DNA of 55,456 nucleotides from Bacteroidota bacterium (GCA_023251675.1 JAHEYJ010000003.1:1-55456), one strand, 5' to 3'; positions 336 to 16,658 are shown, numbered from the stretch's first letter. The notes: generated from the sequence alone by a model not told the origin. Made by a program: numbers and translations.

Positions 336-345
336 CTAAGAATTA
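323..345 (+). repeat. Left inverted repeat (candidate recombination site) GAATAAAGGATAACTAAGAATTA
   Basis: 22/23 identical to the reverse complement of 3025-3047. Overlaps the recombinase stop codon and ends 5 nt before ATG 351. Confidence 0.9.
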
Positions 346-350
346 GCATT

Positions 351-1847
351 ATGTCAAATAAAAATGATTTGATCCCTTTTTCCGACACTGATATTGATTC
401 TATTGCAAATAATCCTTTTCGGAAAGAAATTGATTTTAGCAAGATTTTGCGTATAAAATTTCAAGCAAGAGATATCATCAGCTGTAAGTTATATGGAAAA
501 ATTACCAGTAATCACAACTTTAATAGAGCTAATCTTGTGCAATCTCACTTGTCGGAAATTACCTGTGAAAAAGGAAATTTTAAGTTGGTAGACATTAAGG
601 ATTGTTTTATAGGCAATTCTATTTTTCATAATACAAACTTTGATAGTGGCGCTTGGCTTGAAAATAATATTATCGAATGCAAATTCACCAACTGTCGCAT
701 TACTAATAAATCAATTACAAATACGCAATTTAAAAGGGTTTCATTTTTAAAAGTAGATTTCACAAATATAAATATCAAAGGCTGTGAATTTATCGAATGT
801 ATTTTTGAAGCATGTGTGACTTCAAATAAACTCTTCGAATCCTGTATATTACAAGATTGTGAAATAATTGATACAGTAATTCATATAGAAACAATTACCG
901 AGAATTTTGGACTTACAGCTACTCAAGTAAAGGGAGGAAAAATAATTATTAGTAAAAACAGGAACTCTGCAAAGACATTAACAAAGGAAGATTTAGCACA
1001 AATGTTAGAAAGTCCAGATTTCTTTGATGATATACCGAGATTTCGTTTGGCGTTTTTCCTCAATGGATTAGAAACCTTTTATTCAGATTTTTTTGAAAAT
1101 GCACTTCAAATTTTAAAATGGGCAGAGGGAATGGCAATCGCTTCAAGCTTTACCAATCTCCTTCAATCTTTTTCTAGGTATTTATTATTGCTATTCGATA
1201 AAAATATTTTATCTGTTCACCCATTACTGGTTATGCATCATAATACAGGAATGCTATCAAGACATATGGGTTCAAATTCTAATCCTCATTTTAATACAGT
1301 TATGGGAGTGCATATGACCTTATCTCGAATCGTTGAACAATATTTATCTGCATTAATTCATTTACTTGAAAATATTCAAAATCCAGTTAGATTTTTGGTT
1401 GTGGGGCCAATAGATATTAAATATTATGAAAAAGAACTTGCTTTTCTTTTTACGGGAAAGAGTGTAAGGATTACAAAAGTTATAAAACACAATTCTCCAA
1501 ATGAATTATTTGTTGCATGGTCAGAACTTTCTGGTGTGGCTTCACTTATTGCAATTGCTTTATCTACAAAATGTAATTTTGAGATTGAGAAAATCAAGAA
1601 AAAACAAAATGTGCATTCTAATACCAAGTCCTCAAAAAATAAAAATTTAATAAAGACAAATTCACTCGTTAATTTGTCCCCTATCTCATATTTCAAATTT
1701 TTAATGGGCTTCGAAAAGCAAGACAAAAATGAGTTTCAAATACAACTACTTTCAATACTTCCTGGAGATTTGTTTTTGAAACTTGGACTAAAAATTCATT
1801 CAAAACTGCTTGGTAAAATTTCTAGTATCATTAAAGAAATTTTATAA
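351..1847 (+). CDS. Pentapeptide-repeat protein with unknown C-terminal domain
   Basis: About residues 50-185 show 5-residue periodicity (NFNRANLVQSHLSE, CKFTNCRITN, CEFIECIFEAC). The C-terminal ~300 aa is not recognised. Confidence 0.8.
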   Translation: MSNKNDLIPFSDTDIDSIANNPFRKEIDFSKILRIKFQARDIISCKLYGKITSNHNFNRANLVQSHLSEITCEKGNFKLVDIKDCFIGNSIFHNTNFDSGAWLENNIIECKFTNCRITNKSITNTQFKRVSFLKVDFTNINIKGCEFIECIFEACVTSNKLFESCILQDCEIIDTVIHIETITENFGLTATQVKGGKIIISKNRNSAKTLTKEDLAQMLESPDFFDDIPRFRLAFFLNGLETFYSDFFENALQILKWAEGMAIASSFTNLLQSFSRYLLLLFDKNILSVHPLLVMHHNTGMLSRHMGSNSNPHFNTVMGVHMTLSRIVEQYLSALIHLLENIQNPVRFLVVGPIDIKYYEKELAFLFTGKSVRITKVIKHNSPNELFVAWSELSGVASLIAIALSTKCNFEIEKIKKKQNVHSNTKSSKNKNLIKTNSLVNLSPISYFKFLMGFEKQDKNEFQIQLLSILPGDLFLKLGLKIHSKLLGKISSIIKEIL

Positions 1848-1850
1848 TTC

Positions 1851-3023
1851 TTAATTGGTATATTTTTTTAATATCTCAATCCCTTCGAGTATATGAAAAG
1901 GTCTATTATAATAATTTACCCTTATGTGTTCTTCTCCGTTTTCAAATGCAAAACCCATATGCGATCCAAGTAGTATAGGCACTCCTTGCTGAACGCAAAA
2001 TCTTATTAGTTTATTTCTATGGAAAAAATGGTTTTTGCTGCCAAAATTAAGTCTAATAGCACCAAGGTACCCATTGGATGTAGGAATTACGTGCCAATTT
2101 TTTTCTCCTAATAACGACTGTTCAACTTTGGCTCTAATTTTCAGCACCTGCTGATTTGCAATATTCAACAGACTTCTAAACACATCATGTTTTTGTGAAT
2201 GATGATATGCTAACTGTAAACTAAAATAATCTATTGCTCCGCCATACATAGTCGTATGCTCTCGTATTGTAGAAGAAATTGTTTTAGGATGTATAATAAA
2301 GGCAATTCTTGGACCATTAATTCCTAAAGGCTTATAAAAATTTCTAAATCTTATTACTGAATCTAACCTTCCGGATAATCCGCTTAAAAGTGATGGAAAT
2401 TTTTGCTCTACAGCCTCATCAATAACTAAGAAATTGTTTTTCCCCAACATATCAATAATACTTCTTATGTATTTAATATCTTGATCTGTTCCCATTGAAG
2501 CTCTTGGCTGAGTAATCCACACAGCACAAGGAGAGTTATTTTTTATCAGTTTACGGCTAATAGAAAATTGGTAATTATTATGGGAGTATGTAGGAATATA
2601 AATATTTTTAAATCCTAATTTTTTTGACTGAAGAGATGTAGCAAAATATTCTGGGGTTTCAAAAATTATTTTATTTACTCCTAATGATTGTAAAGAAGCT
2701 AATATTATTTGACTGGCCAAGGTTGATGATTGACAGTATGTTATATTAGATAGGTCTAAACTCCGTCCATCTTCCCATTTTTCTATTAATCTTAAGATGG
2801 ATATAAATTTTCTTTTTAATCCGGGATGATTATTGCTGTGATACCAATTAATGTTTTTCCCTTCAAATTGTATTTTCGAAAAGAAACCTTCAAGATCAGA
2901 AGAAGTGTCTGACCAGCCAGAAATGTCTGCGACCAAACGATTTTTATCTAAGATTTGTTTCTTTAATAATTTATCTACTCTTTCGAAATCATCAGATGAA
3001 AAATATTTATTTACCAATTGCAT
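1851..3023 (-). CDS. PLP-dependent aminotransferase class I/II-like protein
   Basis: Fold-type I motifs: WITQPRASMG (NP-like), LVIDEA, NFYKPLGINGPRIAF (PLP Lys plus GxR) and C-terminal HIRVNY. Confidence 0.8.
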   Translation of the reverse strand: MQLVNKYFSSDDFERVDKLLKKQILDKNRLVADISGWSDTSSDLEGFFSKIQFEGKNINWYHSNNHPGLKRKFISILRLIEKWEDGRSLDLSNITYCQSSTLASQIILASLQSLGVNKIIFETPEYFATSLQSKKLGFKNIYIPTYSHNNYQFSISRKLIKNNSPCAVWITQPRASMGTDQDIKYIRSIIDMLGKNNFLVIDEAVEQKFPSLLSGLSGRLDSVIRFRNFYKPLGINGPRIAFIIHPKTISSTIREHTTMYGGAIDYFSLQLAYHHSQKHDVFRSLLNIANQQVLKIRAKVEQSLLGEKNWHVIPTSNGYLGAIRLNFGSKNHFFHRNKLIRFCVQQGVPILLGSHMGFAFENGEEHIRVNYYNRPFHILEGIEILKKYTN

Positions 3024-3024
3024 A

Positions 3025-3047
3025 TAATTCTTAGTTATCCGTTATTC
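3025..3047 (-). repeat. Right inverted repeat (candidate recombination site) GAATAACGGATAACTAAGAATTA
   Basis: Reverse complement of 323-345 with one mismatch. Ends 1 nt before the aminotransferase ATG at 3023. Confidence 0.9.
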
Positions 3048-3188
3048 GCGAGTAAAAGTATGAAATAATTTACTATACCCTTTGTTACTGCTGGAAAACC
3101 ACATCGCTCTGGACATGTATAATGAAAATTGATATACTGCTATAATAGGGTTTAGATTTCCTTATTATAAAATAACCAAAGTATATAT

Positions 3189-3692
3189 ATGCCTTTAGAA
3201 AAACCAATTCAAACAATAAGAAAAGCAATCAAAGGAACAGCCGAAAATGCCGCAGAAAAAGAATCTCTTGAAAAACCAACATCAAGACATTTTGAACAGA
3301 CTCTATCTTTGTATAAACAAATACGAGATGAGAGCCCCGAAATGCTTGAAAAACTCATAACCGTAACTGCTAAAGCAAAAGAGTTAAAAGATGAACTTGG
3401 CCCATCCTTAGATAGAACATTTAGGAAAGTATGGAGTGAATTGAATGAAAAATATAAAAACGAAATTATTACAAAGGTTGAAAAATTGGAAGATGAAAAT
3501 CTAATCTCCCAAGAATATAAACGTAAACTTGTAACTATTACCGGAAAAATATTTAATAAAATTAGTGAAGAATTCAGAAATGACCCACGCATAATTGTTG
3601 CTTTTACAGAGAAAGAAGAGCTTCTTGAAAAAGCCATTACGTTTTCTACCTCAGGTGCTCTTGAGCTATTTGATATCCCCGGATTAGTTTAA
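3189..3692 (+). CDS. Hypothetical helical, charged protein
   Basis: 167-aa ORF filling an AT-rich gap, with no recognised motif. Confidence 0.6.
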   Translation: MPLEKPIQTIRKAIKGTAENAAEKESLEKPTSRHFEQTLSLYKQIRDESPEMLEKLITVTAKAKELKDELGPSLDRTFRKVWSELNEKYKNEIITKVEKLEDENLISQEYKRKLVTITGKIFNKISEEFRNDPRIIVAFTEKEELLEKAITFSTSGALELFDIPGLV

Positions 3693-3744
3693 ATAAATCA
3701 ACATACTTCCCCGTCCGTATTTGCATAGGAATATCTTACTTATG

Positions 3745-4011
3745 TCATCGTGATCGGCCTTTTTCTTTGCTTTTGACTCGTGACCTTATTATTAAAGGTC
3801 TAATTTCGAGTTTCACGTCTTCTGGTCTAATTTTCTCCCACGTGTTTGTTCTATAATAACCTTGCCGTTCGTACCTCAAAGGAAATTCCTTAACGAATTT
3901 TTCAGCTTCTTCTCTTGTCATTGAACCATCTCCATGACAATCACAAGAGGCGGGAATTCCGTCTGTATTATTAAACACTATATACCTGGTATTTTTATTG
4001 TTGTTTTGCAT
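3745..4011 (-). CDS. Small hypothetical protein with basic C-terminal tail
   Basis: 88 aa, 22 bp downstream of the relaxase on the same strand. Its tail RSRVKSKEKGRSR resembles the relaxase tail. Confidence 0.65.
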   Translation of the reverse strand: MQNNNKNTRYIVFNNTDGIPASCDCHGDGSMTREEAEKFVKEFPLRYERQGYYRTNTWEKIRPEDVKLEIRPLIIRSRVKSKEKGRSR

Positions 4012-4033
4012 TTTGCTATTTTTAAAAATGATT

Positions 4034-4882
4034 TTATCTGTTACGATTAATGTTCTTTTCTTTAGACTTCCCTTTCATTTCACTTAGTTCTTTTCCTCTA
4101 TTTAACGACTTGTTTAATTCATCCAGTTTCTCCTCTGTAAATCCGATTCTTTTCAACCGGAATTTCTTGTTAGCAAAATACACTCCGGAAATTTTATCCC
4201 CTCGCTCATACACTTTCAGTTTACTTGCTTTCAGCAATTCAAAAAAACTTTCTCTGGAACCGGCTTGATTATAGCAGGAATTCAGAATCCCAATCAACTG
4301 CTCCTTCTGCGAAGCCCTCCCTGTCCGTAGTTTCATCTGGTATTCTTTGTCGGTAAGGAGGGCTTTGGCTTTTTTTGAGTGATCAACGACTGATTTTGAT
4401 AATTCCGGAAATGTTTTCTGTTGGAAATGTTGTATGTCTTTCTTCAGCGTTTGAAACTCCGCCTTAGTCATTCTGAGGGCTTTGCCGGTGTGGTATTCTA
4501 AGCCAGAGGCGCAGATGTGAATATGCCAATGATCTGTTGTATTCATATGGGGTATTGCAACATACATTCCTTTGGGATTTCTTAATTTCATGTATTCTCT
4601 CGCCATAGTTTGCATTTTTTCCAAAGAAATATTTTTTACATCATCTTTATGCCAGGAAAGAATCTCATGGGTGAGAGATATACTGTCTTTTCTTTTGATC
4701 TTCCGGTAATTCTCATTTTCTAAAAATTGTTTCACCCAGTTATCAATACTGTCGCCTCTGAGATTATGTGTAATGACAAAACTTTTATTCTGCTCATCAA
4801 ACAAACGATCCTTATCATTCATCATGTAATCAAGAAGCTGCCGGAAACTTGGTTTCTTTCGGGTTTTGATTTTAATGATCAT
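4034..4882 (-). CDS. Relaxase/mobilization nuclease (MOBP/VirD2-like HUH)
   Basis: N-terminal LLDYM (candidate catalytic Tyr), LTHEILSWH and HMNTTDHWHIHI (HUH). Start placed at ATG 4882, overlapping the upstream gene end. Confidence 0.85.
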   Translation of the reverse strand: MIIKIKTRKKPSFRQLLDYMMNDKDRLFDEQNKSFVITHNLRGDSIDNWVKQFLENENYRKIKRKDSISLTHEILSWHKDDVKNISLEKMQTMAREYMKLRNPKGMYVAIPHMNTTDHWHIHICASGLEYHTGKALRMTKAEFQTLKKDIQHFQQKTFPELSKSVVDHSKKAKALLTDKEYQMKLRTGRASQKEQLIGILNSCYNQAGSRESFFELLKASKLKVYERGDKISGVYFANKKFRLKRIGFTEEKLDELNKSLNRGKELSEMKGKSKEKNINRNR

Positions 4883-5357
4883 GGGAAGATAAAGGAGGGT
4901 TTCTAAAAATCTCACCTAACTGGGCTTCCAGTTTCACTATTCTTTTTTCTATGGCTGCGTATTTGTCATCCCGATCAAAGAAATAACGCTCCTTTTTACT
5001 GACTATGTTTTGAATCTCATTGAGGCAATCGGAAAGAACCTGTTCCAAACGGGCAATTTGGTCTTTGTTGGGGACTATATAGGTACGATTGAGGTAAGAT
5101 AGCGCTGCCTGCCGTATAAACCCTGTAATGGGCATTTTGTGCGTTTTAGCCCCGTATTGTATCCTGCCGTATTCCCCTTTCTCCTGTGAGAAGTTGACTA
5201 TGAATTCCGGCCTGCGCGAGCGCTGACCACGCTTGTATTTGGTGAGATAATCCTTCCGATACGCTTTCTTGGCCGCTTTAATTTCAGCATCAGTGCCGTT
5301 AAGCACTCCCTGATCTTCAAGGTAATCCCACATTTTACTATTGCTTCTTTTACTCAT
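4872..5357 (-). CDS. MobC-like relaxosome accessory protein
   Basis: Lies directly upstream of the relaxase. EYGRIQYGAKTHKMPITGFIRQAAL resembles a ribbon-helix-helix. ATG 5357 overlaps the T4CP stop. Confidence 0.6.
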   Translation of the reverse strand: MSKRSNSKMWDYLEDQGVLNGTDAEIKAAKKAYRKDYLTKYKRGQRSRRPEFIVNFSQEKGEYGRIQYGAKTHKMPITGFIRQAALSYLNRTYIVPNKDQIARLEQVLSDCLNEIQNIVSKKERYFFDRDDKYAAIEKRIVKLEAQLGEIFRNPPLSSHDH

Positions 5358-6792
5358 GAACTTTTTCAATAGCTGGTAATGGAAGTACCGGCACAGAGTC
5401 AAAACAGGTTTGCGAAATAGTTCTAGGAGCAGGGATCTGGCTTAACCTGCTGTAGCGGAAGTTTTTGTAAAAAGGTTTGAGTTTGGCAAGAATCGGAGGG
5501 CGGTTTCCCGCTATGATAATGGCTTTATTCTCCTTGAGCATCCTGACCTCGGAAGCAGTCATAAGTTCCCGGATTATTTTTTTGTCGTCCTTATCCCTGT
5601 ACTCATAACGACCGAGTATTTGTTCCAGTTCTCTTGAAGTTTCCAAATTCTGTCCGGCAAAGAACATTTTTACATAACAGTTGCTTCGTATGGCTTCTGC
5701 CTCATGCTTGCCGTATTGATGGACGCACTGATCATATGTCTGGTACAGAATTAATATGCCAGCTCGGTGCTTGCGGACATTTGAAACGGCTAATTGCAAG
5801 GTCGGCATGTTCAAACTGGAAGCCTCGTCAATCAGAAAGAAAATATTCTGCTCTTCTTCTTTTGGGAATCTTGAAAGCACAAATGAGAAAAACTGCTCAA
5901 AGAAAATGCTTGTAAGCGTTGAGAAATATTTTTGGTCTGCGACAGAGTTTTGGATAAATAATACCGTTGGTTTATCCCTGAACTGCTGCATATCAATATT
6001 ATCGGTGGAAGTGATCTTTGCCACCGATTCATCGGAAAAAATCTGGAGTGCCGCCTTTACCGTGGAAATCGTGCCGCTAATGACCTTGTCATCTGCGCTT
6101 AAGAAGCTCTTGTATTCATCCCAAAGGTTTTCATCGGCGTATTGGCTGAATAGCTTATCCACCTGCTCAGGGCTTGCTCCCATTTTATTGAGAAGCATGC
6201 GCACGGTATATAAGTTCTGATATTGCGGTTCTTGCTTTTTTAAAATACTGATGAGCATTGACAAAAGCTGGATAGCCGAGTTGTTCCAGAACGGGTCCTT
6301 GGCATTCTTTCCCAGTGCGTTTGAAATTAACATGGATGACACTTTGTTAATCTCGCTTGAAGTGTTAGCGCGTAAAAGAGGATTGAATCCGGATGAAGCG
6401 TCCGGCTTTGAAAAATTTAATTGCTTGACTATAAATCCCTGCTCTTTCAGGTAGCCGCTTGATTTTAAATAATTCTCTCCGCTTGGATCATTCACAATTA
6501 CGCTGGAATTTTTTAGAGAATACAGCGTGGGCAGTAGTATAGTTGTGGTTTTTCCCAAACCAGTGGAGGCAATGACAAGGGCATTTTGATAGCTCAATTT
6601 CAGCGTAAGGTTCTTATCACCTGTCAAACAAAATCCCTTATTCCATGGACTAAGCAAAGACCAGGAACTTGAAAATTCTGCTGTATAGGATTTGTTTTTA
6701 GAATTGGTAAGGACTGATTCTAAAATCTCAACGCCCGCTCTGAGAGTTCCTTCTATTATTGAGATGATAATGTCAAAGAATTTTGTAATCAT
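5350..6792 (-). CDS. Type IV coupling protein, VirD4/TraG family
   Basis: Walker A ASTGLGKTT, VNDPSGE, FNPL, DPFW, Walker B FLIDEA, and RKHRAGILILYQ. Start placed at ATG 6792 (MITKFF). Confidence 0.9.
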   Translation of the reverse strand: MITKFFDIIISIIEGTLRAGVEILESVLTNSKNKSYTAEFSSSWSLLSPWNKGFCLTGDKNLTLKLSYQNALVIASTGLGKTTTILLPTLYSLKNSSVIVNDPSGENYLKSSGYLKEQGFIVKQLNFSKPDASSGFNPLLRANTSSEINKVSSMLISNALGKNAKDPFWNNSAIQLLSMLISILKKQEPQYQNLYTVRMLLNKMGASPEQVDKLFSQYADENLWDEYKSFLSADDKVISGTISTVKAALQIFSDESVAKITSTDNIDMQQFRDKPTVLFIQNSVADQKYFSTLTSIFFEQFFSFVLSRFPKEEEQNIFFLIDEASSLNMPTLQLAVSNVRKHRAGILILYQTYDQCVHQYGKHEAEAIRSNCYVKMFFAGQNLETSRELEQILGRYEYRDKDDKKIIRELMTASEVRMLKENKAIIIAGNRPPILAKLKPFYKNFRYSRLSQIPAPRTISQTCFDSVPVLPLPAIEKVHE

Positions 6793-6805
6793 GTTGATGG
6801 TTATT

Positions 6806-6934
6806 TTATTTAATAGTATTTTTAAGCAAGTCATTAATAAAATGAAGAATGCCTTCCAATATTCTGCCAACTCCCCAGAGAAGTATTAAGAACAGTTTGG
6901 CGATTGTTTTGACGAGTTTCTCTATTACTTCCAT
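6806..6934 (-). CDS. Small hydrophobic 42-aa protein (not in ORF track)
   Basis: MEVIEKLVKTIAKLFLILLWGVGRILEGILHFINDLLKNTIK* fills the gap between 6950 and the T4CP start, on the same strand. Confidence 0.55.
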   Translation of the reverse strand: MEVIEKLVKTIAKLFLILLWGVGRILEGILHFINDLLKNTIK

Positions 6935-6949
6935 CGTTTTAGTATTTTT

Positions 6950-7660
6950 TTAATCGTTGATGTTTGCTGAAATGTGAACGGTCGCGCCTTTGTCCTCTAA
7001 AAGTTTCTTGTAGAATGCCGTGGCGATTGTAAATGCTTTGTCGCTGTAAGTATCAATCGGCTGGAAAATGAAATACACTTCTATGCCGCCAAGGTTCTGT
7101 AATGTTTCCAACTGATCAAACTGTTTTCTGATTGCTTCGGGATCAGTTTGAAGCAGCGCAAGTGTTTTTTTGTTGTAGAAAGATAAACTGCTCGTATTTT
7201 CCATCAGGTCTGAATAGATAAGCAGGTATTTCTTGTCGGCTTTGCTTTGGGCGAGCCGGTTAAGTTCATTTGCTATGGGAAGATAAATGGAAGAATTCCT
7301 TTTGCCGACAATGGCCTGTTCTGCCTGCGCGAGAATGCCGGCAACACTTTTCTGAAACTGTTTTACCTCATCCTCCCTCTGAAATTCATTGTTCGTCCAC
7401 TGGTTTGCAGTTTCAAGTTTTATTTCCTCCGCGGGATTGAAACTTACCTGCGTGATGTCGGAGAAATGAAACACCGCCCCGTTCCACTTGTTTTGAGCAA
7501 AGTCATACAGGCGCAGAACATCTGCCACGCTTGGCTGGGCAAGCTCTTGATCGGTAATATCCCGAAATACCGCTACTTCTGTAGTAGAGGTTTGGCTTGT
7601 CATCCAGGCAATTATGAAAATGGTTATGCTAAAGAGCAGAATCAGGATTGTTGTTTTCAT
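6950..7660 (-). CDS. Membrane-anchored protein with possible vWA-like alpha/beta domain
   Basis: N-terminal hydrophobic anchor, then VAVFRDIT, SSIYLPI and LLIYSDLMEN. Confidence 0.55.
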   Translation of the reverse strand: MKTTILILLFSITIFIIAWMTSQTSTTEVAVFRDITDQELAQPSVADVLRLYDFAQNKWNGAVFHFSDITQVSFNPAEEIKLETANQWTNNEFQREDEVKQFQKSVAGILAQAEQAIVGKRNSSIYLPIANELNRLAQSKADKKYLLIYSDLMENTSSLSFYNKKTLALLQTDPEAIRKQFDQLETLQNLGGIEVYFIFQPIDTYSDKAFTIATAFYKKLLEDKGATVHISANIND

Positions 7661-8735
7661 GCGTTTTGTATTTAGTGATGATTGATTGAAAGTTTATATT
7701 TGGAATGTCCAGTTCGGGTATTTCATCGTTAAAACAATCGGGGAAATCCTTTCTGCCCATGCGATTCGCTTTTTTGTATTCATCCACGGATTCCCTGTAC
7801 ATTATTTTTATCCGCTCAATGCAGTACTCTGCTTCCATCAAAGCGCCTATGTACTTACTCAGTGTTTCATTTTTTACTTTTTCATGCTCCTGCAGCTCAT
7901 TTTCTTTTTGTTGTTTTTCCCTTTCAAGCTTTTCAAGCAGCTTCAGCTTATGAAGGCTCTTCCTGTTCTGCTCAATTTCTTCCCTAGTCGGATGGTAGTA
8001 CCATGTTGCAAAGGGGGATATCAGGAAGAAAACTAAGTTAAAGACGGTAAAATAAAAGGGGTTTACCTCTACTCCAATGCGTTGCATAAACGTTGCGCGC
8101 AGTGATGCAATAACTGAAGAAACAATAGCCATGCAAGCAGCCGATACAATGACGACAAGCCATTTTTCAAGTTTTGTTTTTGCATCTTTATATTTCCTGC
8201 CTGCAAAATGCGCTCCCAAGCTTACGCACAGGGAAACCGAGGCTGAAATCATAAGGCAGGAGATCAGGTTATCCCCTGTTACCTGAAAGGCTTTTGTGTT
8301 CAGGTACACCTCGCCGATAAAAATTCCGAAGCCGATCCAAAGTGTTGTCCTGATGCGGGAAGCAATCTCGCTGGGGTTATAGAGAGAAAGTTCCTGTTTT
8401 AATATGCAGATATGCTTTTCTAAATTATTTATGACCTCCCCCAGTTTCTTGCTAACAGCATCTGCCAGATCCTTATACTTTCTGCCTTCGGCAAGTTGTG
8501 ATATCGGCTGGATGATCTGCAGCACTTTCAATACGAGGTTTTCGTACTTCGACTTGAAATGGATATGATGAACCAGTTTGTCTTTTTTTACTAAGGGCTG
8601 GGCTGGTTCTTTCATCCCATCGTGCTTGCCATCGTTATATGCCTCCGCTTTAACCCGGGCATGCTCTGTTTCAATCATGTTTTCAACGTCATGACTTGTT
8701 ATTGTTTTTTTAATTGGAATGATCGATGGTTTCAT
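7629..8735 (-). CDS. Multi-pass membrane protein with coiled-coil flanks
   Basis: About four hydrophobic segments in the middle and K/E-rich helices on both sides. Overlaps the next gene. Confidence 0.7.
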   Translation of the reverse strand: MKPSIIPIKKTITSHDVENMIETEHARVKAEAYNDGKHDGMKEPAQPLVKKDKLVHHIHFKSKYENLVLKVLQIIQPISQLAEGRKYKDLADAVSKKLGEVINNLEKHICILKQELSLYNPSEIASRIRTTLWIGFGIFIGEVYLNTKAFQVTGDNLISCLMISASVSLCVSLGAHFAGRKYKDAKTKLEKWLVVIVSAACMAIVSSVIASLRATFMQRIGVEVNPFYFTVFNLVFFLISPFATWYYHPTREEIEQNRKSLHKLKLLEKLEREKQQKENELQEHEKVKNETLSKYIGALMEAEYCIERIKIMYRESVDEYKKANRMGRKDFPDCFNDEIPELDIPNINFQSIITKYKTHENNNPDSAL

Positions 8736-8747
8736 TTGATTTTGTTT

Positions 8748-9098
8748 TTAACGATTAATTGAAATTTCTTTTGCTTTCTGATTTTTTCTCTCGCGGATTT
8801 TATCGACATCTTCCGCTCTTCGTTCTCGTTTTGCGAGTTCTATGGCGTATTTTTCAAATCCCATCATTATTGTCTGCCATGAAGCCGTAGGAGGGCATAC
8901 CGGAAAATTATCGCAACTTGAAGTAAAATATGTATGATCTCCATTTCTGAATTCACGCTGGCCAACATATCCTAGCCACTTCTTCGATCCATCCGGCATG
9001 ACCTGCCTAACGGCACAATAGCCGCTGCCTGAAGGAAATGGAACGAATTCCAGCTTTATTTCCTGTGGTTCACTTTGCTCCTGTGATTTTCTTTTCAT
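8748..9098 (-). CDS. Small hypothetical protein (paralog family A, with C-terminal motif)
   Basis: Aligns by eye with 9546-9866 and 9871-10272. Ends RAEDVDKIRERKNQKAKEISINR. Confidence 0.7.
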   Translation of the reverse strand: MKRKSQEQSEPQEIKLEFVPFPSGSGYCAVRQVMPDGSKKWLGYVGQREFRNGDHTYFTSSCDNFPVCPPTASWQTIMMGFEKYAIELAKRERRAEDVDKIRERKNQKAKEISINR

Positions 9099-9134
9099 GC
9101 TCTCTTTGATTTTTATGGTTGCTGTTTGATTTAT

Positions 9135-9530
9135 TTATCGGAATAATTCCCGGCCTTTATTTTTAAAATATTTCTTTTGCCTGATATTTTTTACATCCTG
9201 TTCCCTGTCACTTTTCCCCGCAGCAAGGCCAACTACTGAATCCAAGACACCGCGGGAATGCTTCATGCTGTTTTCCATGAATACCTCCGCATCCTGTTGC
9301 ATCGAGTGGTTTTTTTTCTGAGGGCTTTTACTCTGTCTTATTTGATTTATTTCCTTTTCCCTTTTGGAAGAAAGATCCGACAGGTCTTTGGTTAAATTGA
9401 AAGTTATTTCCTGAAGCTTCTCTTTTACTGTCGGATTTTCTTTTCTTTCCCTGATTTGCTTTTGTATGGCGAGCTCCGGATTTTTTGGCTCATCCCATTT
9501 CTCTTTAGGTGTTTGGACTATTTTTCTCAT
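9135..9530 (-). CDS. Small charged hypothetical protein with two copies of the C-terminal motif
   Basis: Contains REKEINQIR internally and ends REQDVKNIRQKKYFKNKGRELFR. Confidence 0.65.
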   Translation of the reverse strand: MRKIVQTPKEKWDEPKNPELAIQKQIRERKENPTVKEKLQEITFNLTKDLSDLSSKREKEINQIRQSKSPQKKNHSMQQDAEVFMENSMKHSRGVLDSVVGLAAGKSDREQDVKNIRQKKYFKNKGRELFR

Positions 9531-9545
9531 GACTGTAATTTTTAA

Positions 9546-9866
9546 TTAATGAGTGATTGCCAGTTTGAGTTCCTTGAGATTCCTTTGCTCTCGTATCGCT
9601 TCAATTTCTTCTGCCCTTTCTATTTGCTCCAGCCTTCTCGCGTACCGCTCAAATTCATTCTCTACATCCGACCATGATGTGGTTTTGAGAAATGCATCTT
9701 CTGAATCCCTATTGTGGGAGACATATTCCACACAACCATCCTCGCTGCACTCTTGTGAAACAGAGCCGATGATTTCTTTCTTCCCATTAGATAATAGTCT
9801 GCTCACGATAATGCAATCCACGGCACTGAGCGGTACGCTGAACCGGGCATAAGTTTTTGCTTCCAT
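9546..9866 (-). CDS. Small hypothetical protein (paralog family A)
   Basis: NGKKEIIGSV...TTSWSDVENEFERYA, ending RAEEIEAIREQRNLKELKLAITH. Confidence 0.7.
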   Translation of the reverse strand: MEAKTYARFSVPLSAVDCIIVSRLLSNGKKEIIGSVSQECSEDGCVEYVSHNRDSEDAFLKTTSWSDVENEFERYARRLEQIERAEEIEAIREQRNLKELKLAITH

Positions 9867-9870
9867 GTTT

Positions 9871-10272
9871 CTATCGTTCTATTTGTTGTCCTTTATCTTT
9901 TTTTGAACTGCGAACATTCTTGAGTTCTCCTACCCGTGATTCTCCAATACTTTCCTTTTCAACTTGGTTTTGAGGAGTTTCAGGTGCAAGAATTTTTTCA
10001 TTCTGGATGAATTGATTTTTTAGTTCGTAAAGTTTTTCAGTTGGTTCGAATATGGCTTTGCCTTCGCGATCAACTGCTGTGTAGATGTATTTGTTCGCAT
10101 CTTGATTGTAGGTTTTAAAAACCTTTCCCATGAAGACTTTTTTACCATCTACCCTGGTCGCTACAGTCATAAAATGCTGTCCTTGTTTAGCATAAGCGTA
10201 TTCTGTGAATACGATTCTGCTATAAGCGAAAGGAGATCGCTGTTTTTTGGTTTGATCTTGTTGTGTTTCCAT
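9871..10272 (-). CDS. Small hypothetical protein (paralog family A, more divergent)
   Basis: DGKKVFMGKV...YTAVDREG...PTEKLYELKNQF, ending RVGELKNVRSSKKDKGQQIER. Confidence 0.7.
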   Translation of the reverse strand: METQQDQTKKQRSPFAYSRIVFTEYAYAKQGQHFMTVATRVDGKKVFMGKVFKTYNQDANKYIYTAVDREGKAIFEPTEKLYELKNQFIQNEKILAPETPQNQVEKESIGESRVGELKNVRSSKKDKGQQIER

Positions 10273-10309
10273 TGTGATTTGTTTTTATTGGTTGATTTAT
10301 AATTGATTG

Positions 10310-11695
10310 TTATTTCTCCAGTGATATTCCGTTGGATGATTTTCTCAGATCGTGTAATTCGTTCTGCCTTGATTCATTTTGCTCTGGGAATACGGAAAAA
10401 TTTTTGGCGGTCTGCCCGATTATTTTATCCGAAACATAATGGTCAGATAAAATTTTTGTACTTGAGTGCTGTGAAATAATCTGCGCGTTTGAAATTCCGA
10501 TGGCCGCAGATAATGAGCTTAGGTAGGTTTTACGGAGATTTTTATAAGTAGCCTCTTTTGAAAAGCTTAATTGCTTCCAGTAGTGGGTAAAGGAACGCGC
10601 CATAAATTTCCGCATGGTCTCCCTGTTCATCGTTTCGTCATCCGCCAGAATATATTTATCACTTCCCTTGAATTTCTCGTAGCCGAGTTCAATCAGTAAT
10701 TGTTTTAGATCTACTGTTATCGGCACGGATATTTTCTTGGGATTCTTCTCTAATCTCCCCTGCTGGCGTGATACTTTGAAGTCTGTTGCATTTACCGCTA
10801 ACAGTTCTCCCTGATTATTTAATACAATGTCTTTCCAGCGCATTTGAATAATTTCCTCGCTTCTGCGTCCGGTCATAAGCCCTAATTGTATTCCGTCTTT
10901 GACCCATGGGCGGTAAAAGTTTTTTATTTCTTTTCCTACTTTTTGAAGCCCAAGTTCAAGTATCTGCACTATGTCAAGCAAGGCATTGTATTCCTCTTTC
11001 GTTAAAACCTCTATGTTGTGCGTCTCAAGTTTTCTTACAACCCCTGCAAAGGGATTGATAGTCGCAAGCCCCTCTTGAATTAAGTGGTTATAGAGGGAAT
11101 ACATTCTCGTCATCCTGATGTTGTATGATCTCGCTCCCAGATTTTTTGACTCGATGTTCGCGTGGAATTTTCCGACCATAGGCTGGTCAACCTGCTTCGC
11201 CGTGAGTTCCTTTACGTTGTAGTGTTTCTTTAAACTCTTTATGAACTCGATAAATATTTTTTCTACCTCCCTGCAATATTTTTCTCCGCGCTTTCTGCGC
11301 TTGTGCTCCGGTGTGGATTCTCCTCCCCTGAGAAAATCCACGTACCGGCTCATGGCCTCAATGAGAAGCAGCGAACCCTCCTCTTTTTCCAGAGTGGGTA
11401 CTTGGAATTTTTCCCTGTGATGTTTGCCCTCTTTGACCTCTTGATAAAAAGCTGCTGATTGTGCCAATGCTTCTTTTAAAATTCTCGTGTCTAACTTCAT
11501 TGTCCTACGCTTGTCTGAATTTTTCTCGTATTCGACTGCCTTAAAAAATAAATCCGCTGGATGTAGACATTTTTGAAGCGGTTCTCCGGTTGCTTTGCAT
11601 GTATCAAATACAAGGGTGTTGCAGTACTTGCAGTAAACCTTCAAGCCGAATTCTCTTTTGTCTTTTGGTATGTACAGCGGTTTCATTTTTTGCAT
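10310..11695 (-). CDS. Tyrosine integrase of the element
   Basis: LMTGRRSEEI (catalytic Arg), YKNLRKTY (HxxR variant), SQHSS...SDHY (His/Tyr), and INPF in the core-binding domain. Confidence 0.9.
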   Translation of the reverse strand: MQKMKPLYIPKDKREFGLKVYCKYCNTLVFDTCKATGEPLQKCLHPADLFFKAVEYEKNSDKRRTMKLDTRILKEALAQSAAFYQEVKEGKHHREKFQVPTLEKEEGSLLLIEAMSRYVDFLRGGESTPEHKRRKRGEKYCREVEKIFIEFIKSLKKHYNVKELTAKQVDQPMVGKFHANIESKNLGARSYNIRMTRMYSLYNHLIQEGLATINPFAGVVRKLETHNIEVLTKEEYNALLDIVQILELGLQKVGKEIKNFYRPWVKDGIQLGLMTGRRSEEIIQMRWKDIVLNNQGELLAVNATDFKVSRQQGRLEKNPKKISVPITVDLKQLLIELGYEKFKGSDKYILADDETMNRETMRKFMARSFTHYWKQLSFSKEATYKNLRKTYLSSLSAAIGISNAQIISQHSSTKILSDHYVSDKIIGQTAKNFSVFPEQNESRQNELHDLRKSSNGISLEK

Positions 11696-11720
11696 CGTGC
11701 GAGTCTAACTCGTACTTTAT

Positions 11721-12092
11721 TTATTGTCCAGTAAGTTCCTTGTTGATTTCATTAAGGAAACGTTGCTGAGTTTTACTTTTCGGAATTGCCTTTTGTTTTA
11801 CAGTAGGTTTCTTCTTGTCTTGCTCAATTTCATCAAGGGCAGATTGAAGTTGAGCGAAGAGATTCATTTCGGATTTCAAAACTTCCATCCAGCGGTCTTG
11901 GTATTTTGCTTTGAGGTGGTTTATTCTTTCCTGTAGTTGAGCACGTTTAAACTGCGTTGCCAGCACATAGCGCGTTTTACCGGCTCCAAGAATTTCTATC
12001 TTATTCCTCTGTAGGTAATCAGATAAAGACCTGGAGTCCCGGTAAGGAAGCTCGGACTTTAAATCGCGGAAATATATTATCTCGATATTCAT
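11721..12092 (-). CDS. Putative excisionase / winged-helix DNA-binding protein
   Basis: Sits directly upstream of the integrase. The N-terminus (YFRDLKSELPYRDSRSLSDYL...GKTRYV) resembles MerR/Xis-type HTH. Confidence 0.5.
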   Translation of the reverse strand: MNIEIIYFRDLKSELPYRDSRSLSDYLQRNKIEILGAGKTRYVLATQFKRAQLQERINHLKAKYQDRWMEVLKSEMNLFAQLQSALDEIEQDKKKPTVKQKAIPKSKTQQRFLNEINKELTGQ

Positions 12093-12269
12093 TTACCCGC
12101 TTTCCTTTTTGATTTCTTCTTTTTTCTTTTAGGAAAAATTTTTTTACAAAAATTCTCTCTCAGGAGTGCATCGAGATTTAAATACCTGGCCTTGCTCTTT
12201 TGGAGCATCTTGAAAATTTGATCTTCGGATAATTTCTGTTTTTTCATTTGACTTAGGTTTTTTCTAAGG

Positions 12270-12277
12270 CAAATTTA
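12270..12277 (-). promoter_or_regulatory. Candidate Bacteroidota -7 promoter element (TAAATTTG) for the xis-int-mob operon
   Basis: Exact TAnnTTTG match in the intergenic gap, pointing into the leftward operon. Confidence 0.45.
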
Positions 12278-12290
12278 ACCAAAGGAAAAT

Positions 12291-12959
12291 TTAAAAGCGA
12301 GGAGTTTGTTCACTGAAAATTATTTTTAGTTCCGATGAACTTTCAGTGAACATTTTGGAGAGAACTATAAATATGCAGTTATTTAAAGTGTAGTTTGGAT
12401 TCTTTTCCTGCGCTTCTCTTACTTTTTTTCTCAATTCATTAGCTTCTTTTTTGATACTCCCAGAATTAAGAGGGTCTTCAGGATTATGACTTAGAAAAAG
12501 TGCGGGTATAATCATGTGCGGGCGTTGATCTTTGTGTATGATTCCTGCCCACCTCAGGGCTTCAAGAAAATATGCAGTATGTTTATTTTTTCTGTTATGA
12601 AGTTTAAATCCTTTTGGCAAAGCTTCATTGCGAATTCCGTCAATGTCAAAATTGTTTTCAAATTCATTGAATTGCTGCCGGACAATAATATTTTCTCTTT
12701 TAGTAAAAACATTATAGATAGCATTCAATATATTCTTGTCTTTAATCTTTAGAATTATTTTTTCTTTTGATTCTAGTAAAAATTCTTTTTGTGGATTATT
12801 TCTATAAGAGTGTTTTTCTATACTTATAAGTATCTTGTTTGCCAATAAAACCTCTTTGCTCAATTTTAAATGAAGCCGATTAATTTTAACATGGCTCCTC
12901 TTTAACTCTGCGAGTTCCGATTTAAGATTATATGTATGATCTTCTTGCATGACACACAC
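12291..12959 (-). CDS. Hypothetical protein (weak RteC-like resemblance)
   Basis: 222-aa ORF. YFLEALRWAGII loosely recalls RteC-type regulators. Start uncertain. Confidence 0.45.
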   Translation of the reverse strand: MCVMQEDHTYNLKSELAELKRSHVKINRLHLKLSKEVLLANKILISIEKHSYRNNPQKEFLLESKEKIILKIKDKNILNAIYNVFTKRENIIVRQQFNEFENNFDIDGIRNEALPKGFKLHNRKNKHTAYFLEALRWAGIIHKDQRPHMIIPALFLSHNPEDPLNSGSIKKEANELRKKVREAQEKNPNYTLNNCIFIVLSKMFTESSSELKIIFSEQTPRF

Positions 12960-12973
12960 TTATTGTGGTCTTT

Positions 12974-13105
12974 GCAAGAAACAGGGTTGGGCTTGACAAA
13001 CGAAAATCTATATAGATAATTAGACTGTTTGTAGCAAGAAGCCTTATTTCTTGCGCAGACCTCGGGGAAAACGCCTCGGGAACCCGCCATTGCAAGTGGC
13101 GGGTT
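12974..13105. other. Cluster of inverted and direct repeats, candidate oriT
   Basis: GCAAGAAA(12974)...TTTCTTGC(13054) with inner ACAAAC/GTTTGT arms and palindrome ATCTATATAGAT. CCTCGGG occurs twice. Hairpin AACCCGCCA/TGGCGGGTT at 13081-13105. Confidence 0.45.
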
Positions 13106-13109
13106 AAAT

Positions 13110-13139
13110 TTTGCCCAATACTTTTTCCCTGTATCTTTG
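13110..13139 (+). promoter_or_regulatory. Candidate Bacteroidota promoter TTTG-N18-TATCTTTG
   Basis: -33 and -7 consensus elements upstream of ORF 13185. Confidence 0.45.
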
Positions 13140-13184
13140 TCTATCGGAATGCAAGATAGTTCATTATAAAATATAATACAAAAA

Positions 13185-14432
13185 ATGCTGTGGAATTCCA
13201 GAGAATTCCTGTTTCTTCCTATGGATAAAGAAGAATTGGCAAATAGAAGAAAAGTATATATGAGATTTGTTTTGGATCATCTCCAAGACAATATGAATAT
13301 ATTAATTGAAAAAGATATTTATTCAATTAATTCCTTAATAGAAAGTCCAAAAAAATTTACTCGTTTTTCAGAAGGTTCAGAAAAAACATTCCGTGATGCT
13401 TTCAAACTTTTAAAGACCCCAGCGGATAAAACTTTAGAAACAATACAAAAAGTATTTAAAATTCCCATTTCATTTGGGGAATTTGAAGCCGAATTAGAAA
13501 AACCGAATTCTAAATACGCAAAATACAATCAAGAAGCGGGAAAAGAATCTTTAGAACAAATTAAAGAAGTTAAAGAGAGAAAAAATGTTAAAGAAAAGAA
13601 GAAACAAGTAGATTTTCATGATGACTTTCAAAAAGCTGTTTACACTTATCATAAAAAATTCAAAAATGATTGTTTTACTTGGGAAAGTGTAAATAACAAA
13701 ATAATTGAAGACTTATACATCTTAATAAAGTTAATGTATATCAAAAGAAAGTATGTAGACTGCATAGAATATATTCACGAACTAGGTCCATATATCCCTT
13801 GGAATTGGCGTTACTGGCTACATTCATTACAAGCATTTTGCTTGTTCAATCTAAAGGAATATAAACATGCGTTAAAAAATATACAAATTCCATATGATGA
13901 AAATCTTGATCTCAGTAATCACAATCATGACTTTGTTGACGATGAATTTGACAATGACGATGATAACACCTTTAATGGCATTAATCTACTTCTTGAAGGA
14001 GTAATTTATTACTTTCTAAATGATGCAAATCATGCATTAGAGAGATTTGATACAGCAATAAGTGTAGCACTTAATGACAGCTTATATACGATGTCGTTTA
14101 TGCAAGATGATTTTGAACTACATAAATCCGATAATAATTTACTGCTTTGTTTATATAGCAGCAAATATTTAATGTGTTTAGAATTAAATCTAATTCGGGA
14201 CGCAAATGATACGCTATCAAAATATGCTGATCTGCGAAAAAATTGCATTGATTGTTGGCACAAACATTCACACGCTGAAATAAAATTTCACTGGAAAAAT
14301 AAAAAAAAGAAAATAGCAAAAGAAGCAACCAAGTTAATGCTGAAAGAACATTTACTTTGGGTTGCGAATGGATTTCAGAAAGAATTAAATGTTGTAGGTA
14401 TAGAAGTTTATGAAGACTATGAAAATTTGTAA
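13185..14432 (+). CDS. TPR-containing protein, possible N-terminal HTH
   Basis: TPR-like helices (LQAFCLFNLKEYKHALKNI, LLEGVIYYFLNDANHALERFDTAI). PADKTLETIQKVFKI resembles the end of an Xre HTH. Confidence 0.6.
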   Translation: MLWNSREFLFLPMDKEELANRRKVYMRFVLDHLQDNMNILIEKDIYSINSLIESPKKFTRFSEGSEKTFRDAFKLLKTPADKTLETIQKVFKIPISFGEFEAELEKPNSKYAKYNQEAGKESLEQIKEVKERKNVKEKKKQVDFHDDFQKAVYTYHKKFKNDCFTWESVNNKIIEDLYILIKLMYIKRKYVDCIEYIHELGPYIPWNWRYWLHSLQAFCLFNLKEYKHALKNIQIPYDENLDLSNHNHDFVDDEFDNDDDNTFNGINLLLEGVIYYFLNDANHALERFDTAISVALNDSLYTMSFMQDDFELHKSDNNLLLCLYSSKYLMCLELNLIRDANDTLSKYADLRKNCIDCWHKHSHAEIKFHWKNKKKKIAKEATKLMLKEHLLWVANGFQKELNVVGIEVYEDYENL

Positions 14433-14459
14433 TTCAACAATTATTTTTAATTGTATTTG

Positions 14460-14479
14460 AGTGCGGTTTTAAGTGCGGT
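14460..14479. repeat. Tandem AGTGCGGT direct repeats, candidate integrase arm-type sites
   Basis: Two copies (14460-14467, 14472-14479), ~80 bp inside the att junction. Confidence 0.5.
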
Positions 14480-14559
14480 CTTTTGCTGGCTTTTGTGGGG
14501 ATTTGCAAAGTTGAATATTGAAAAACAGAGAAGATTTAAGGAAAGTAAAACTAAATTTC

Positions 14560-14601
14560 GCTTGTAAGGCAGATGCTCTGAACCAGCTGAGCTAAACTCC
14601 C
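14560..14601 (-). tRNA. tRNA-Val(TAC) 5' half only (att-site fragment)
   Basis: GGGAGTTTAGCTCAGCTGGTTCAGAGCATCTGCCTTACAAGC, then unrelated AT-rich sequence with no T-arm or acceptor 3' strand. Confidence 0.85.
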
Positions 14602-14645
14602 AATATTTTTTTTCCTCTCCGAACTTTCCGTTTCCACTCGATATT

Positions 14646-14680
14646 CTCTGAACCATCCGTCAGCTGACGGATAAACTCCC
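14646..14680 (-). pseudogene. Second degenerate tRNA-Val 5' fragment containing an 18-bp palindrome
   Basis: GGGAGTTTA-TCCGTCAGCTGACGGA-TGGTTCAGAG versus GGGAGTTTA-GCTCAGC-TGGTTCAGAG. A TATATTTG promoter element lies at 14692-14699. Confidence 0.65.
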
Positions 14681-14728
14681 AAAAAGGAGTGCAAATATAG
14701 ATAGTTTGGCAAAACGAGAAAAAAGAAA

Positions 14729-15775
14729 TCACTTGTCATCTTTATAGATGCCGATCCACGGTTTCCCGTCGCTTTTGATATATCCCCTGTACATTCCGGG
14801 AGTATTAAACGGCATCGTAATGTTTCCTTTGGAATCCATGGCGATCAGCCCGCCTTCGGCTTCCTGCGCTTTCAGTTTTTTCATCACCACTTCGTTTGCA
14901 GCCTGGTCAACGGTCATGCCTTTGTATTCCATCAGCGCGGAAACATCGTACGCCACCACGTTGCGGATGAAATACTCGCCGTGCCCGGTGCACGATACGC
15001 CGCAGGTTTTATTGTTCGCATACGTTCCGGCGCCAATGATCGGCGAATCACCGATGCGTCCCCATTTTTTGTTGGTCATGCCACCGGTGGAGGTCCCCGC
15101 CGCGAGGTTCCCGTATTTATCGAGCGCCACGCAGCCTACCGTTCCGAACTTCTTATCTCCGCTGAACTCAATATCGGTTGGCTTCACATAACCGGATGTA
15201 TCCGAAGAATGGTCGAGTTTAATATCGTCCTTCTTTTTCATTTCCTGGAACTGCTTCCATCTTTTTTCATCATAGAAATATTTCGGGTCTTCAATTTTCA
15301 AACCTTGCTCTTTAGCGAACTTATCCGCTCCGTCGCCCGACAGCATTACATGCGGAGATTTTTCCATCACGGCACGGGCGGCTTCAATGGGATTGCGGAC
15401 CGTATGCACTCCGGCCACCGCCCCGGCCTTGTTTGTTTTTCCATCCATAACAGCGGCGTCCATAGAATTGGTCCCGTCATTGGCAAACACCGCTCCTTTG
15501 CCGGCATTGAACAGCGGCGAATCTTCCATCACTTTAATGGTTGCGATCACGGCGTCCATGGAAGTGCCGCCTTTGCTGAGAATATCGTAACCGGTTTTCA
15601 TCGCTTCGTTGAGCTTGTCTTTGTACTGCTGTTCCAGTTCAGGCGACATATTTTCTTTGAGGATAGTACCGGCTCCTCCGTGAATTATAATGGCGAAGTT
15701 TTCCATGGGTTTGGTTTGTGCAAAGATTCCCGAAAAAATCCCTGCTGCGAATAATGTGGAGATTATTTTTTTCAT
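14729..15775 (-). CDS. iaaA: Isoaspartyl peptidase/L-asparaginase (Ntn hydrolase) with signal peptide
   Basis: IIIHGGAG, FNAGKGA, GTVGCVA (Thr nucleophile), TSTGG, GRIGDSPIIGAG. Start placed at MKKIISTLFAAG. Confidence 0.92.
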   Translation of the reverse strand: MKKIISTLFAAGIFSGIFAQTKPMENFAIIIHGGAGTILKENMSPELEQQYKDKLNEAMKTGYDILSKGGTSMDAVIATIKVMEDSPLFNAGKGAVFANDGTNSMDAAVMDGKTNKAGAVAGVHTVRNPIEAARAVMEKSPHVMLSGDGADKFAKEQGLKIEDPKYFYDEKRWKQFQEMKKKDDIKLDHSSDTSGYVKPTDIEFSGDKKFGTVGCVALDKYGNLAAGTSTGGMTNKKWGRIGDSPIIGAGTYANNKTCGVSCTGHGEYFIRNVVAYDVSALMEYKGMTVDQAANEVVMKKLKAQEAEGGLIAMDSKGNITMPFNTPGMYRGYIKSDGKPWIGIYKDDK

Positions 15776-15822
15776 TTGTCCAAATGTAGAAAAATTCAAA
15801 CTTGATTTAGTATTTTCGCCCT

Positions 15823-16641: not shown

Positions 16642-16658
16642 TTCCTGAATTCTGTACG

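Follow-up and report, generated by a model that had tools for sequence, protein, structure and literature searches.

In a stretch of 55,456 nucleotides of DNA from a Bacteroidota bacterium (GCA_023251675.1, JAHEYJ010000003.1:1-55456; the whole stretch is called the window), six proteins of one mobile element end in the same short C-terminal tag. The tag is a bipartite linear motif: a core, R-x-x-E-L-x-x-[ILV]-R; a hydrophilic spacer of 9-17 residues; a C-terminal [ILM]-x-R. It is carried by the relaxase, the tyrosine integrase and four small proteins (orf8748, orf9135, orf9546 and orf9871). It is absent from the type IV coupling protein (T4CP) and from the proteins encoded beside it: a MobA-like accessory protein, a membrane protein of 368 amino acids (aa), mem368, a von Willebrand A (VWA)-like protein of 236 aa, p236, and a tiny hydrophobic protein. 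The proposed interpretation (probability about 0.5) is that the coupling-protein module encoded by the element reads the tag as a signal for docking or translocation.

The genome test set consisted of 10,400 six-frame open reading frames (ORFs) of at least 60 aa from the 3.41-Mb assembly. In its strict form, R-x-x-[ED]-[ILV]-x-x-[ILVM]-[RK] at 10-14 residues from the C-terminus, the motif is found in seven of them, six being proteins of this 9-kb element; 12 ORFs have it anywhere in the last 30 aa. The seventh ORF (71 aa, contig C215, no Pfam match) is taken as chance. The six tails had been listed in a preliminary description of the sequence, and every one reads exactly as quoted there; the possibility that the motif is as common at host C-termini is contradicted by these counts. 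A profile of the tails, also suggested in that description, was built as a hidden Markov model (HMM); its 47 tails come from 40 related loci in other genomes, window sequences being excluded. The input comprised same-strand ORFs with a loose core pattern 7-16 aa from the end; the T4CP, MobA-like, p236 and mem368 ORFs (one regular-expression hit) and the opposite-strand ORFs (five hits) were left out, and about five training rows that look spurious were retained. Against the C-termini of the 10,400 ORFs, the six element proteins rank 1, 3, 4, 5, 6 and 7 (20.6, 14.4, 13.8, 13.7, 12.9 and 12.9 bits). Rank 2 goes to a class-IV aminotransferase (PF01063, contig C5), a chance match and the only one outside the element at 12 bits or more. 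As background, 4 of 10,394 ORFs of the window genome reach 8 bits. All other element proteins score at most 4.4 bits, and the T4CP, MobA-like and membrane genes, from which the motif had been reported absent, at most 0.5 bits. The likeness of the six tails is thus far beyond chance. ORF 3745, to which a related tail had been attributed, scores 4.4 bits (E = 34) and is rejected as a seventh member.

Scans of genome contigs with single proteins (relaxase, integrase) gave no relatives; these were found by a wider genome search and with a T4CP alignment. At E <= 1e-15, the relaxase has relatives in 38 of the 401 genomes sampled from the class; of the 10 genomes from the order, 3 have one. Relatives of the T4CP were collected by searching a 14-row alignment against a species-level genome collection, 80 of 110 being kept; nearly all of these 80 loci are titled as metagenome-assembled genomes of Bacteroidota or Bacteroidia from environmental samples. 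In a plasmid collection, 2 of 72,556 records contain a relaxase relative (33.5% and 28.9% identity); in one of them, a Desulfotalea plasmid, no tag was seen by eye among 17 coding sequences.

The tag was called at 8 bits or more, a conservative threshold, in 63 of the 80 loci; the other 17 overlap loci used for training. In this independent set, it is found on 24 of 57 relaxases, 26 of 30 members of the orf9871 family, 11 of 21 ArdC proteins, 7 of 10 integrases, 3 of 13 members of the orf9546 family, 2 of 4 DUF6908 proteins and the single member of the orf8748 family (1/1). It is found on none of the machinery proteins (T4CP, 0/63; MobA-like, 0/60; p236, 0/54; mem368, 0/46), on 5 of 353 other same-strand ORFs and on 1 of 351 opposite-strand ORFs. 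Many relaxases at 5-10 bits show the motif by eye. Over all 80 loci, the same machinery families are likewise untagged (0/82, 0/76, 0/71 and 0/60, respectively). Around genes of the Bacteroidota-type conjugation systems (10 TraG genes from 9 genomes, up to a distance of about 20 kb), none of 410 ORFs reaches 12 bits, the best score being 7.4 bits. Among the loci examined, the tag is confined to elements with this T4CP module. Since it was not found near these TraG genes, its reader is probably encoded by the elements themselves, as the T4CP or as one of its conserved neighbours.

The composition of the tag was analysed on 86 ORFs of at least 10 bits in the 80 loci; 81 tails could be parsed, and all are distinct. 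With the glutamate of the core as position 0, position -3 is R in 60 of the 81 tails, position 0 is E in 67 and D in 8, position +1 is L in 56, I in 19 and V in 5, position +4 is I in 30, L in 21, V in 13, T in 10 and M in 7, and position +5 is R in 77. The antepenultimate residue is I, L, M or V in 55 tails; the last residue is R in 51 and K in 10. The number of residues after the core is 9-17 in all 81 tails, the commonest values being 12 (23 tails) and 14 (27 tails).

Such a likeness could come from descent of the carriers from common paralogues, combined with chance in charged, helix-prone C-termini, or from a repeat at the DNA level. Paralogy does occur in these elements, the orf9871 family forming arrays of up to three genes per element and orf8748 and orf9546 looking like paralogues by eye, and charged C-termini are frequent in these proteins. 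The carriers nevertheless include unrelated folds (relaxase, tyrosine recombinase, ArdC, DUF6908 and at least three small-protein families without any family or fold match), and the genome background given above is too sparse for chance. As to the DNA, the conserved Arg and Leu positions use all six codons each, in about the proportions of the same ORFs overall, the codons of the six window tails differ, and no family of direct repeats covers the tails; a DNA-level explanation is ruled out on these three grounds. Selection thus acts on the protein and not on the DNA. This whole group of explanations is given only the slightest chance.

The regular distance to the stop codon could also be that of a nascent peptide which pauses the ribosome at termination and so tunes translation of the next gene of the operon. 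The two modes of the core-to-stop distance and the frequent final arginine fit this, as does the position of the tagged genes of the window, each ending 4-37 nucleotides before the next start. A spacer of 9-17 residues that ranges from strongly acidic to strongly basic is a poor fit to a precise contact in the tunnel; p236 and the tiny ORF have similar gaps and no tag; and in related loci the tag is also found on ArdC, the last recognized gene of the conserved order. The tag is carried by enzymes of 280-470 aa and by proteins of 100-390 aa, whereas, to our knowledge, known arrest peptides lie in short leader ORFs and not at the ends of enzymes. Neither the precise spacing nor the short regulatory ORF of an arrest peptide is seen here, and this explanation is judged very improbable.

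The tag is preceded by variable, indel-rich linkers, and the tail presumably sits in a disordered C-terminal extension, as far as predicted models indicate. In the AlphaFold2 (AF2) model of orf9871, a folded beta-rich N-domain with a predicted local distance difference test (pLDDT) value above 90 is followed by a disordered linker and then by the tag; residues 100-129 are below 50. In the integrase, the catalytic domain ends near residue 422 of 461, before the tag. Homologues of ArdC with at least 10 bits (12 proteins) are 323-389 aa long; the five clearly tagless ones whose genes lie at a distance from the relaxase or on the opposite strand measure 282-310 aa. The tag is therefore considered as an add-on. 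The assignment to ArdC was checked on tagged proteins of about 330 aa encoded downstream of the relaxase: all three tested (loci L033, L041 and L045) consist of ArdcN and MPTase-PolyVal, with PF08401 and PF18818 each at E of about 1e-33 to 1e-36. The window element has no ArdC.

No Pfam, NCBIfam or PHROG model is matched, at or above its threshold, by any of the small tagged proteins. Atlas look-alikes (scores of at most 0.81) are LPD28, DUF4316 and DUF3849 proteins of Bacillota and serve as leads only. The model of orf9871 has no fold match in the PDB at E <= 0.001, and the structural neighbours of orf8748 are weak only. For orf9135, no homologue was found by phmmer in 120 related loci. In the orf9871 family, up to three diverged paralogues occur per element, each tagged (L046, L047 and L050); tails of this family elsewhere are acidic (e.g. 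...DELEEIREQDNDIEQDMELDM), and the tail in the window is basic. ORF 3745 has no homologue in related loci.

The mechanism proposed is the following. Through the tag, the relaxase and several 'establishment' proteins (the integrase, ArdC in relatives and several small proteins) would be recruited to an element-encoded coupling-protein module, made up of the T4CP and possibly of mem368, the VWA-like p236 and the tiny hydrophobic ORF. The docked proteins would leave the donor with the DNA through the type IV secretion channel of a helper and would act at once in the recipient. That the T4CP module reads the tag, and that docking leads to export, is inferred; the mechanism as a whole is given roughly even odds. 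The relaxase is the canonical substrate of coupling proteins, and it is in the new host that the integrase has to act on the element. ArdC of R388 is necessary in the recipient but not the donor, according to the part of PMC7213743 drawn on here. The docking or translocation reading is favoured because the tag is carried by the relaxase and by recipient-acting proteins and is absent from the transfer machinery. The preliminary description had proposed delivery of a protein set by the element's own T4CP, by analogy with positively charged VirB/D4-type signals. The distribution of the module over non-homologous proteins agrees with that proposal; the analogy of charge fails.

A complex between T4CP residues 45-480 (36-row alignment) and the last 60 aa of the relaxase (28-row alignment, from the 28 relaxase C-termini that were aligned) was predicted, as the preliminary description had suggested. 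The outcome was a score of 0.32, rated 'weak support', against 0.00 for the best of three controls, with no interface reported; the partner has a pLDDT of 63 or more, and 100% of the contacts agree between runs. The mark is reached by 58 of 80 solved complexes and by 2 of 110 mismatched pairs; at 0.60 or below, it is reached by only 7 of the 80 solved complexes and by both mismatches.

Several points weigh against the docking or translocation reading. The predicted binding comes from this one weak pass, and the partner chain also held a conserved folded segment, so that any contact could be made without the tag. Beyond the core, the tails have net charges between -8 and +6 (25 tails negative, 12 neutral and 44 positive), which contradicts a signal of the positively charged VirB/D4 type. 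With a threshold of 10 bits, the 71 relaxase-containing loci divide as follows: 16 have the tag on the relaxase and other proteins, 9 on the relaxase only, 21 on other proteins only and 25, some of whose contigs are cut, on none. Tagless relaxases in tagged loci imply that the tag is not the sole signal for DNA transfer; on the DNA-relaxase complex it is at most an auxiliary signal. The activity of R388 ArdC is independent of its export, in the account of PMC7213743 as far as it is used here. The model for Bacteroidota-type TraG, TIGR03783, is negative in the window genome (G000) and in five carrier genomes (G148, G127, G080, G226 and G109), and the VirB4 models PF12846 and PF03135 are negative in G000 and in four of the five, the single PF12846 match being an element T4CP. 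As VirB4 was not found in the tested carriers, no helper channel is in evidence. The flanks of the 80 loci contain no recurrent large ORF; the largest cluster has 5 members, and no VirB4 is seen among the 7 representatives tested. The 17 genomes positive for TraG and the 38 positive for the relaxase do not overlap, which at these numbers is not statistically remarkable. One carrier, G148, has at least six relaxase matches. Finally, the data fit alternative readers alike: the cytoplasmic parts of mem368, the MobA-like protein or a host factor.

With such a reader, which might also be a host protease or chaperone, the tag would be a docking peptide without export. It would assemble the proteins in one place (a relaxosome or 'transfersome') or, as a degron, set their lifetime. 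The same distribution fits this role, the tag being on many soluble element proteins and on none of the machinery. The slender computational link to the T4CP, the accessory proteins that keep tags where the relaxase has none and the failure to find a helper type IV secretion system (T4SS) in the carrier genomes tested all speak for it. Against it, gathering or degrading an anti-restriction protein, an integrase and orphan proteins in the donor serves no evident purpose, whereas a role in the recipient is plausible. A degron is further disfavoured by the end of the tag, [ILM]-[END]-R, unlike known degrons; the bacterial C-terminal degrons known to us end in non-polar residues. A host-factor reader leaves the absence of the tag near the examined Bacteroidota-type conjugation genes unexplained. 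A docking peptide for such a partner, serving assembly or turnover and not export, is the main rival; it is regarded as unlikely, though a serious alternative.

Taken at its widest, the docking or translocation reading says that environmental Bacteroidota elements mark their 'conjutome' by a single C-terminal tag and that the module exports the relaxase, the integrase, an anti-restriction protein and several uncharacterized, probably anti-defence proteins; this broad statement is tentative, its chances falling somewhat short of even. A bolder variant, suggested because no VirB4-type protein was found in the six carrier genomes tested, is that a module of the T4CP, the protein with four transmembrane segments, the VWA-like protein and the tiny ORF works without any VirB4-type system. 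It is thought highly unlikely.

The features of the element and of the adjacent DNA are given in Table 1. In the direction of transcription, from 12959 to 3745, ORFs of 222, 52 and 123 aa are followed by the integrase and the four small ORFs, then by mem368, p236, a 42-aa ORF, the T4CP, the MobA-like protein, the relaxase and ORF 3745. The block unites a relaxase, a T4CP and a site-specific recombinase (PF03432, PF02534 and PF00589); its T4CP is the only one in the assembly, and no match to a VirB4-type ATPase (TIGR03783, PF12846 or PF03135) is found in the whole window genome. On these grounds, the block is classified from its gene content as an integrative mobilizable element (IME) with its own relaxase and coupling protein. 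G+C is 0.30-0.42 across the first ~14 kb and 0.42-0.50 beyond. No convincing flanking direct repeat (att) is found in 1-15,500 and no tRNA gene in 1-20,000; the contig begins at base 1, and one end of the element may be missing. The 123-aa ORF has homologues 5' of the integrase in some related loci.

Table 1. Features of the element and of the adjacent DNA. Positions are those of the window; tag positions include the core, which is given in brackets.
Feature	Position	Strand	Tag	Tag position (core)	Score (bits)	Remarks
Co-oriented block	3745-12959	-				part of the window of 55,456 nucleotides
Three ORFs upstream of integrase (123, 52, 222 aa)	11721..12959	-				same orientation, untagged
Tyrosine integrase, 461 aa	10310..11695	-	RQNELHDLR-KSSNGISLEK	10313-10369 (10343-10369)	12.9	PF00589, PF13102
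orf9871, 133 aa	9871..10272	-	RVGELKNVR-SSKKDKGQQIER	9874-9936 (9910-9936)	20.6	small protein
orf9546, 106 aa	9546..9866	-	RAEEIEAIR-EQRNLKELKLAITH	9549-9617 (9591-9617)	14.4	small protein
orf9135, 131 aa	9135..9530	-	REQDVKNIR-QKKYFKNKGRELFR	9138-9206 (9180-9206)	12.9	small orphan protein
orf8748, 116 aa	8748..9098	-	RAEDVDKIR-ERKNQKAKEISINR	8751-8819 (8793-8819)	13.7	small protein
mem368, membrane protein, 368 aa	7629..8735	-				no family at or above Pfam gathering score
p236, 236 aa	6950..7660	-				von Willebrand A-like fold, hydrophobic N-terminus
Tiny hydrophobic ORF, 42 aa	6806..6934	-			-1.9	between p236 and T4CP
Type IV coupling protein (T4CP), 480 aa	5350..6792	-				PF02534 at 8.5e-52, PF10412, PF12696; start is the ATG aligning with relatives, listed ORF (TTG start) to 6870, 26 codons longer
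MobA-like accessory protein, 176 aa	4872..5402	-				overlaps relaxase start; no Pfam match
MobA/VirD2-type relaxase, 282 aa from MIIKIK	4034..4882	-	RGKELSEMK-GKSKEKNINRNR	4037-4099 (4073-4099)	13.8	PF03432 at 6.1e-13; start fixed by comparison with relatives, listed ORF extends to 4915
ORF 3745, 88 aa	3745..4011	-			4.4	downstream of relaxase; basic C-terminus; not in tag family
Aminotransferase-like protein	1851-3023	-				within 1-3700 stretch
Pentapeptide-repeat protein	351-1847	+				within 1-3700 stretch
Second tyrosine recombinase, C-terminal piece	111-335	+				within 1-3700 stretch

The nearest NCBIfam model of the T4CP is NF045973 (conju_CD1115), at 212 bits, under the cut-off of 250 bits. 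By eye, its N-terminus is an amphipathic stretch, not clearly a hydrophobic anchor, and in most relatives its C-terminus has a conserved proline-rich motif (...P-[VL]-L-P-L...), which, from its sequence, could be a docking peptide of its own. In locus L041 (G315:C17), the T4CP frame is split at 6867-8099 into three ORFs (131, 93 and 230 aa), and the tags of the relaxase, integrase, ArdC and small proteins are intact; this is possibly a decaying copy. The MobA-like protein is conserved in position (76 ORFs in the 80 loci). Counterparts of the tiny ORF, similar in size and C-terminal sequence, occupy the same place in related loci.

The AF2 model of p236 (pLDDT 92.7) has 89 PDB matches at E <= 0.001, among them the Ku80 von Willebrand domain, proteasome Rpn10 and BatB of B. 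thetaiotaomicron, which we take to be VWA domains. The predicted VWA-like model rules out p236 as a VirB8-like part of a T4SS. Many relatives of p236 have a Cys after the hydrophobic stretch and are lipoprotein-like by eye; in L051, L060 and L069, p236 is a single ORF of 596-689 aa that may include the membrane protein too. We know of no VWA protein that is a partner of a T4CP. By eye, mem368 shows some four hydrophobic stretches, and its C-terminal part is charged and coiled-coil-like; it is a candidate part of the putative receptor module.

Beside the element, 1-3700 is of low G+C (0.30-0.32) and is maybe cargo or a neighbouring island. Further away, a tandem array at 18450-18872 (period ~99-115 nucleotides, ~3-5 copies, 89-94% identity) lies between the convergent ORFs 18227-18448 (+) and 18855-19574 (-) and yields spurious repeated ORFs on both strands.

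The rules by which coupling proteins select substrates in conjugation are not yet well defined. The relaxase signals known so far are large and internal and vary between systems, according to the portion of PMC10025392 relied on here. With a tag of 25 residues and five near-invariant positions, the question of substrate choice would become directly testable: mutations can be made in the tag, and it can be moved to reporters, serve as bait for its receptor or, as a profile, predict the set of proteins exported by an element. In open-access texts and preprints, no description was found of the motif, of the element family or of a Bacteroidota T4SS signal, and no report of a translocated tyrosine integrase. 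If the docking or translocation reading is true, the phylum would have its first crisp linear T4SS/T4CP signal, and delivery of an integrase in protein form would have its first example. The element would send its integrase and counter-defence proteins ahead, without waiting for expression in the new host, and the tagged orphans would be candidates for new establishment or anti-defence functions.

Short C-terminal signals common to unrelated substrates, relaxases among them, recruit cargo to VirD4-type proteins in Agrobacterium, Legionella, Bartonella and Xanthomonas, and known C-terminal T4SS signals lie in disordered extensions (both from the part of PMC10025392 drawn on). A close likeness is with the Agrobacterium VirB/D4 substrates (VirF, VirE2, VirD2 and RSF1010 MobA): these unrelated proteins likewise have a short signal in their last tens of residues, with a relaxase among the substrates, and theirs is read by a VirD4-type coupling protein (PMC10025392, same part). 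The tag lies, as there, within the last ~20-50 residues, its core ending 9-17 residues from the end in 81/81 tails. In contrast, the VirB/D4 signal has a net positive charge and an Arg-rich consensus, and the tag has neither, being defined by its core and its terminal [ILM]-x-R. The VirB/D4 coupling protein belongs to the locus of the secretion system, whereas here it is carried by the mobilizable element.

In the Legionella Dot/Icm system, the coupling protein has a membrane partner, DotM, to which E-block tails bind; a role of mem368 as reader of the tag would be a parallel. The E-block is likewise a C-terminal linear motif on many unrelated substrates (PMC10025392, in the portion used). It is a Glu-rich patch without fixed positions on effectors targeted to the host, whereas the tag has fixed Arg, Glu and Leu positions and is carried by the mobile element's own DNA-processing and establishment proteins. 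XVIPCD of Xanthomonas and BID of Bartonella are also modular, C-terminal, attached to diverse cargo and recruited by VirD4, and BID is also present on relaxases (PMC10025392, again in part). Unlike the tag, a linear tail of ~25 residues in a presumably disordered region of low model confidence, they are folded domains of at least ~100 residues.

Protein delivery during conjugation is reported for the F-like plasmid pED208, which sends ParA, ParB, SSB, PsiB and others to recipients; the abstracts of PMC8406263 and PMC11288057 name no common motif, whereas here a motif is known from the sequence alone. The IncW ArdC proteins (R388, pSa) have the same ArdcN and metallopeptidase architecture as the tagged ~330-aa proteins of related elements. 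Export of the R388 protein is neither required nor demonstrated, as stated in the section of PMC7213743 drawn on, and the tagged homologues are longer. IMEs encoding a relaxase and a T4CP share the combination of integrase, relaxase, accessory protein and T4CP without VirB4 or mating-pair genes (IMEs are reviewed in PMC5704250). The present element differs from them by a T4CP adjoined by a membrane protein, a VWA-like protein and a tiny ORF, and by a protein set marked with a motif. By analogy, the tag resembles a C-terminal T4SS signal, outside the positively charged VirB/D4 class and more position-specific than the E-block.

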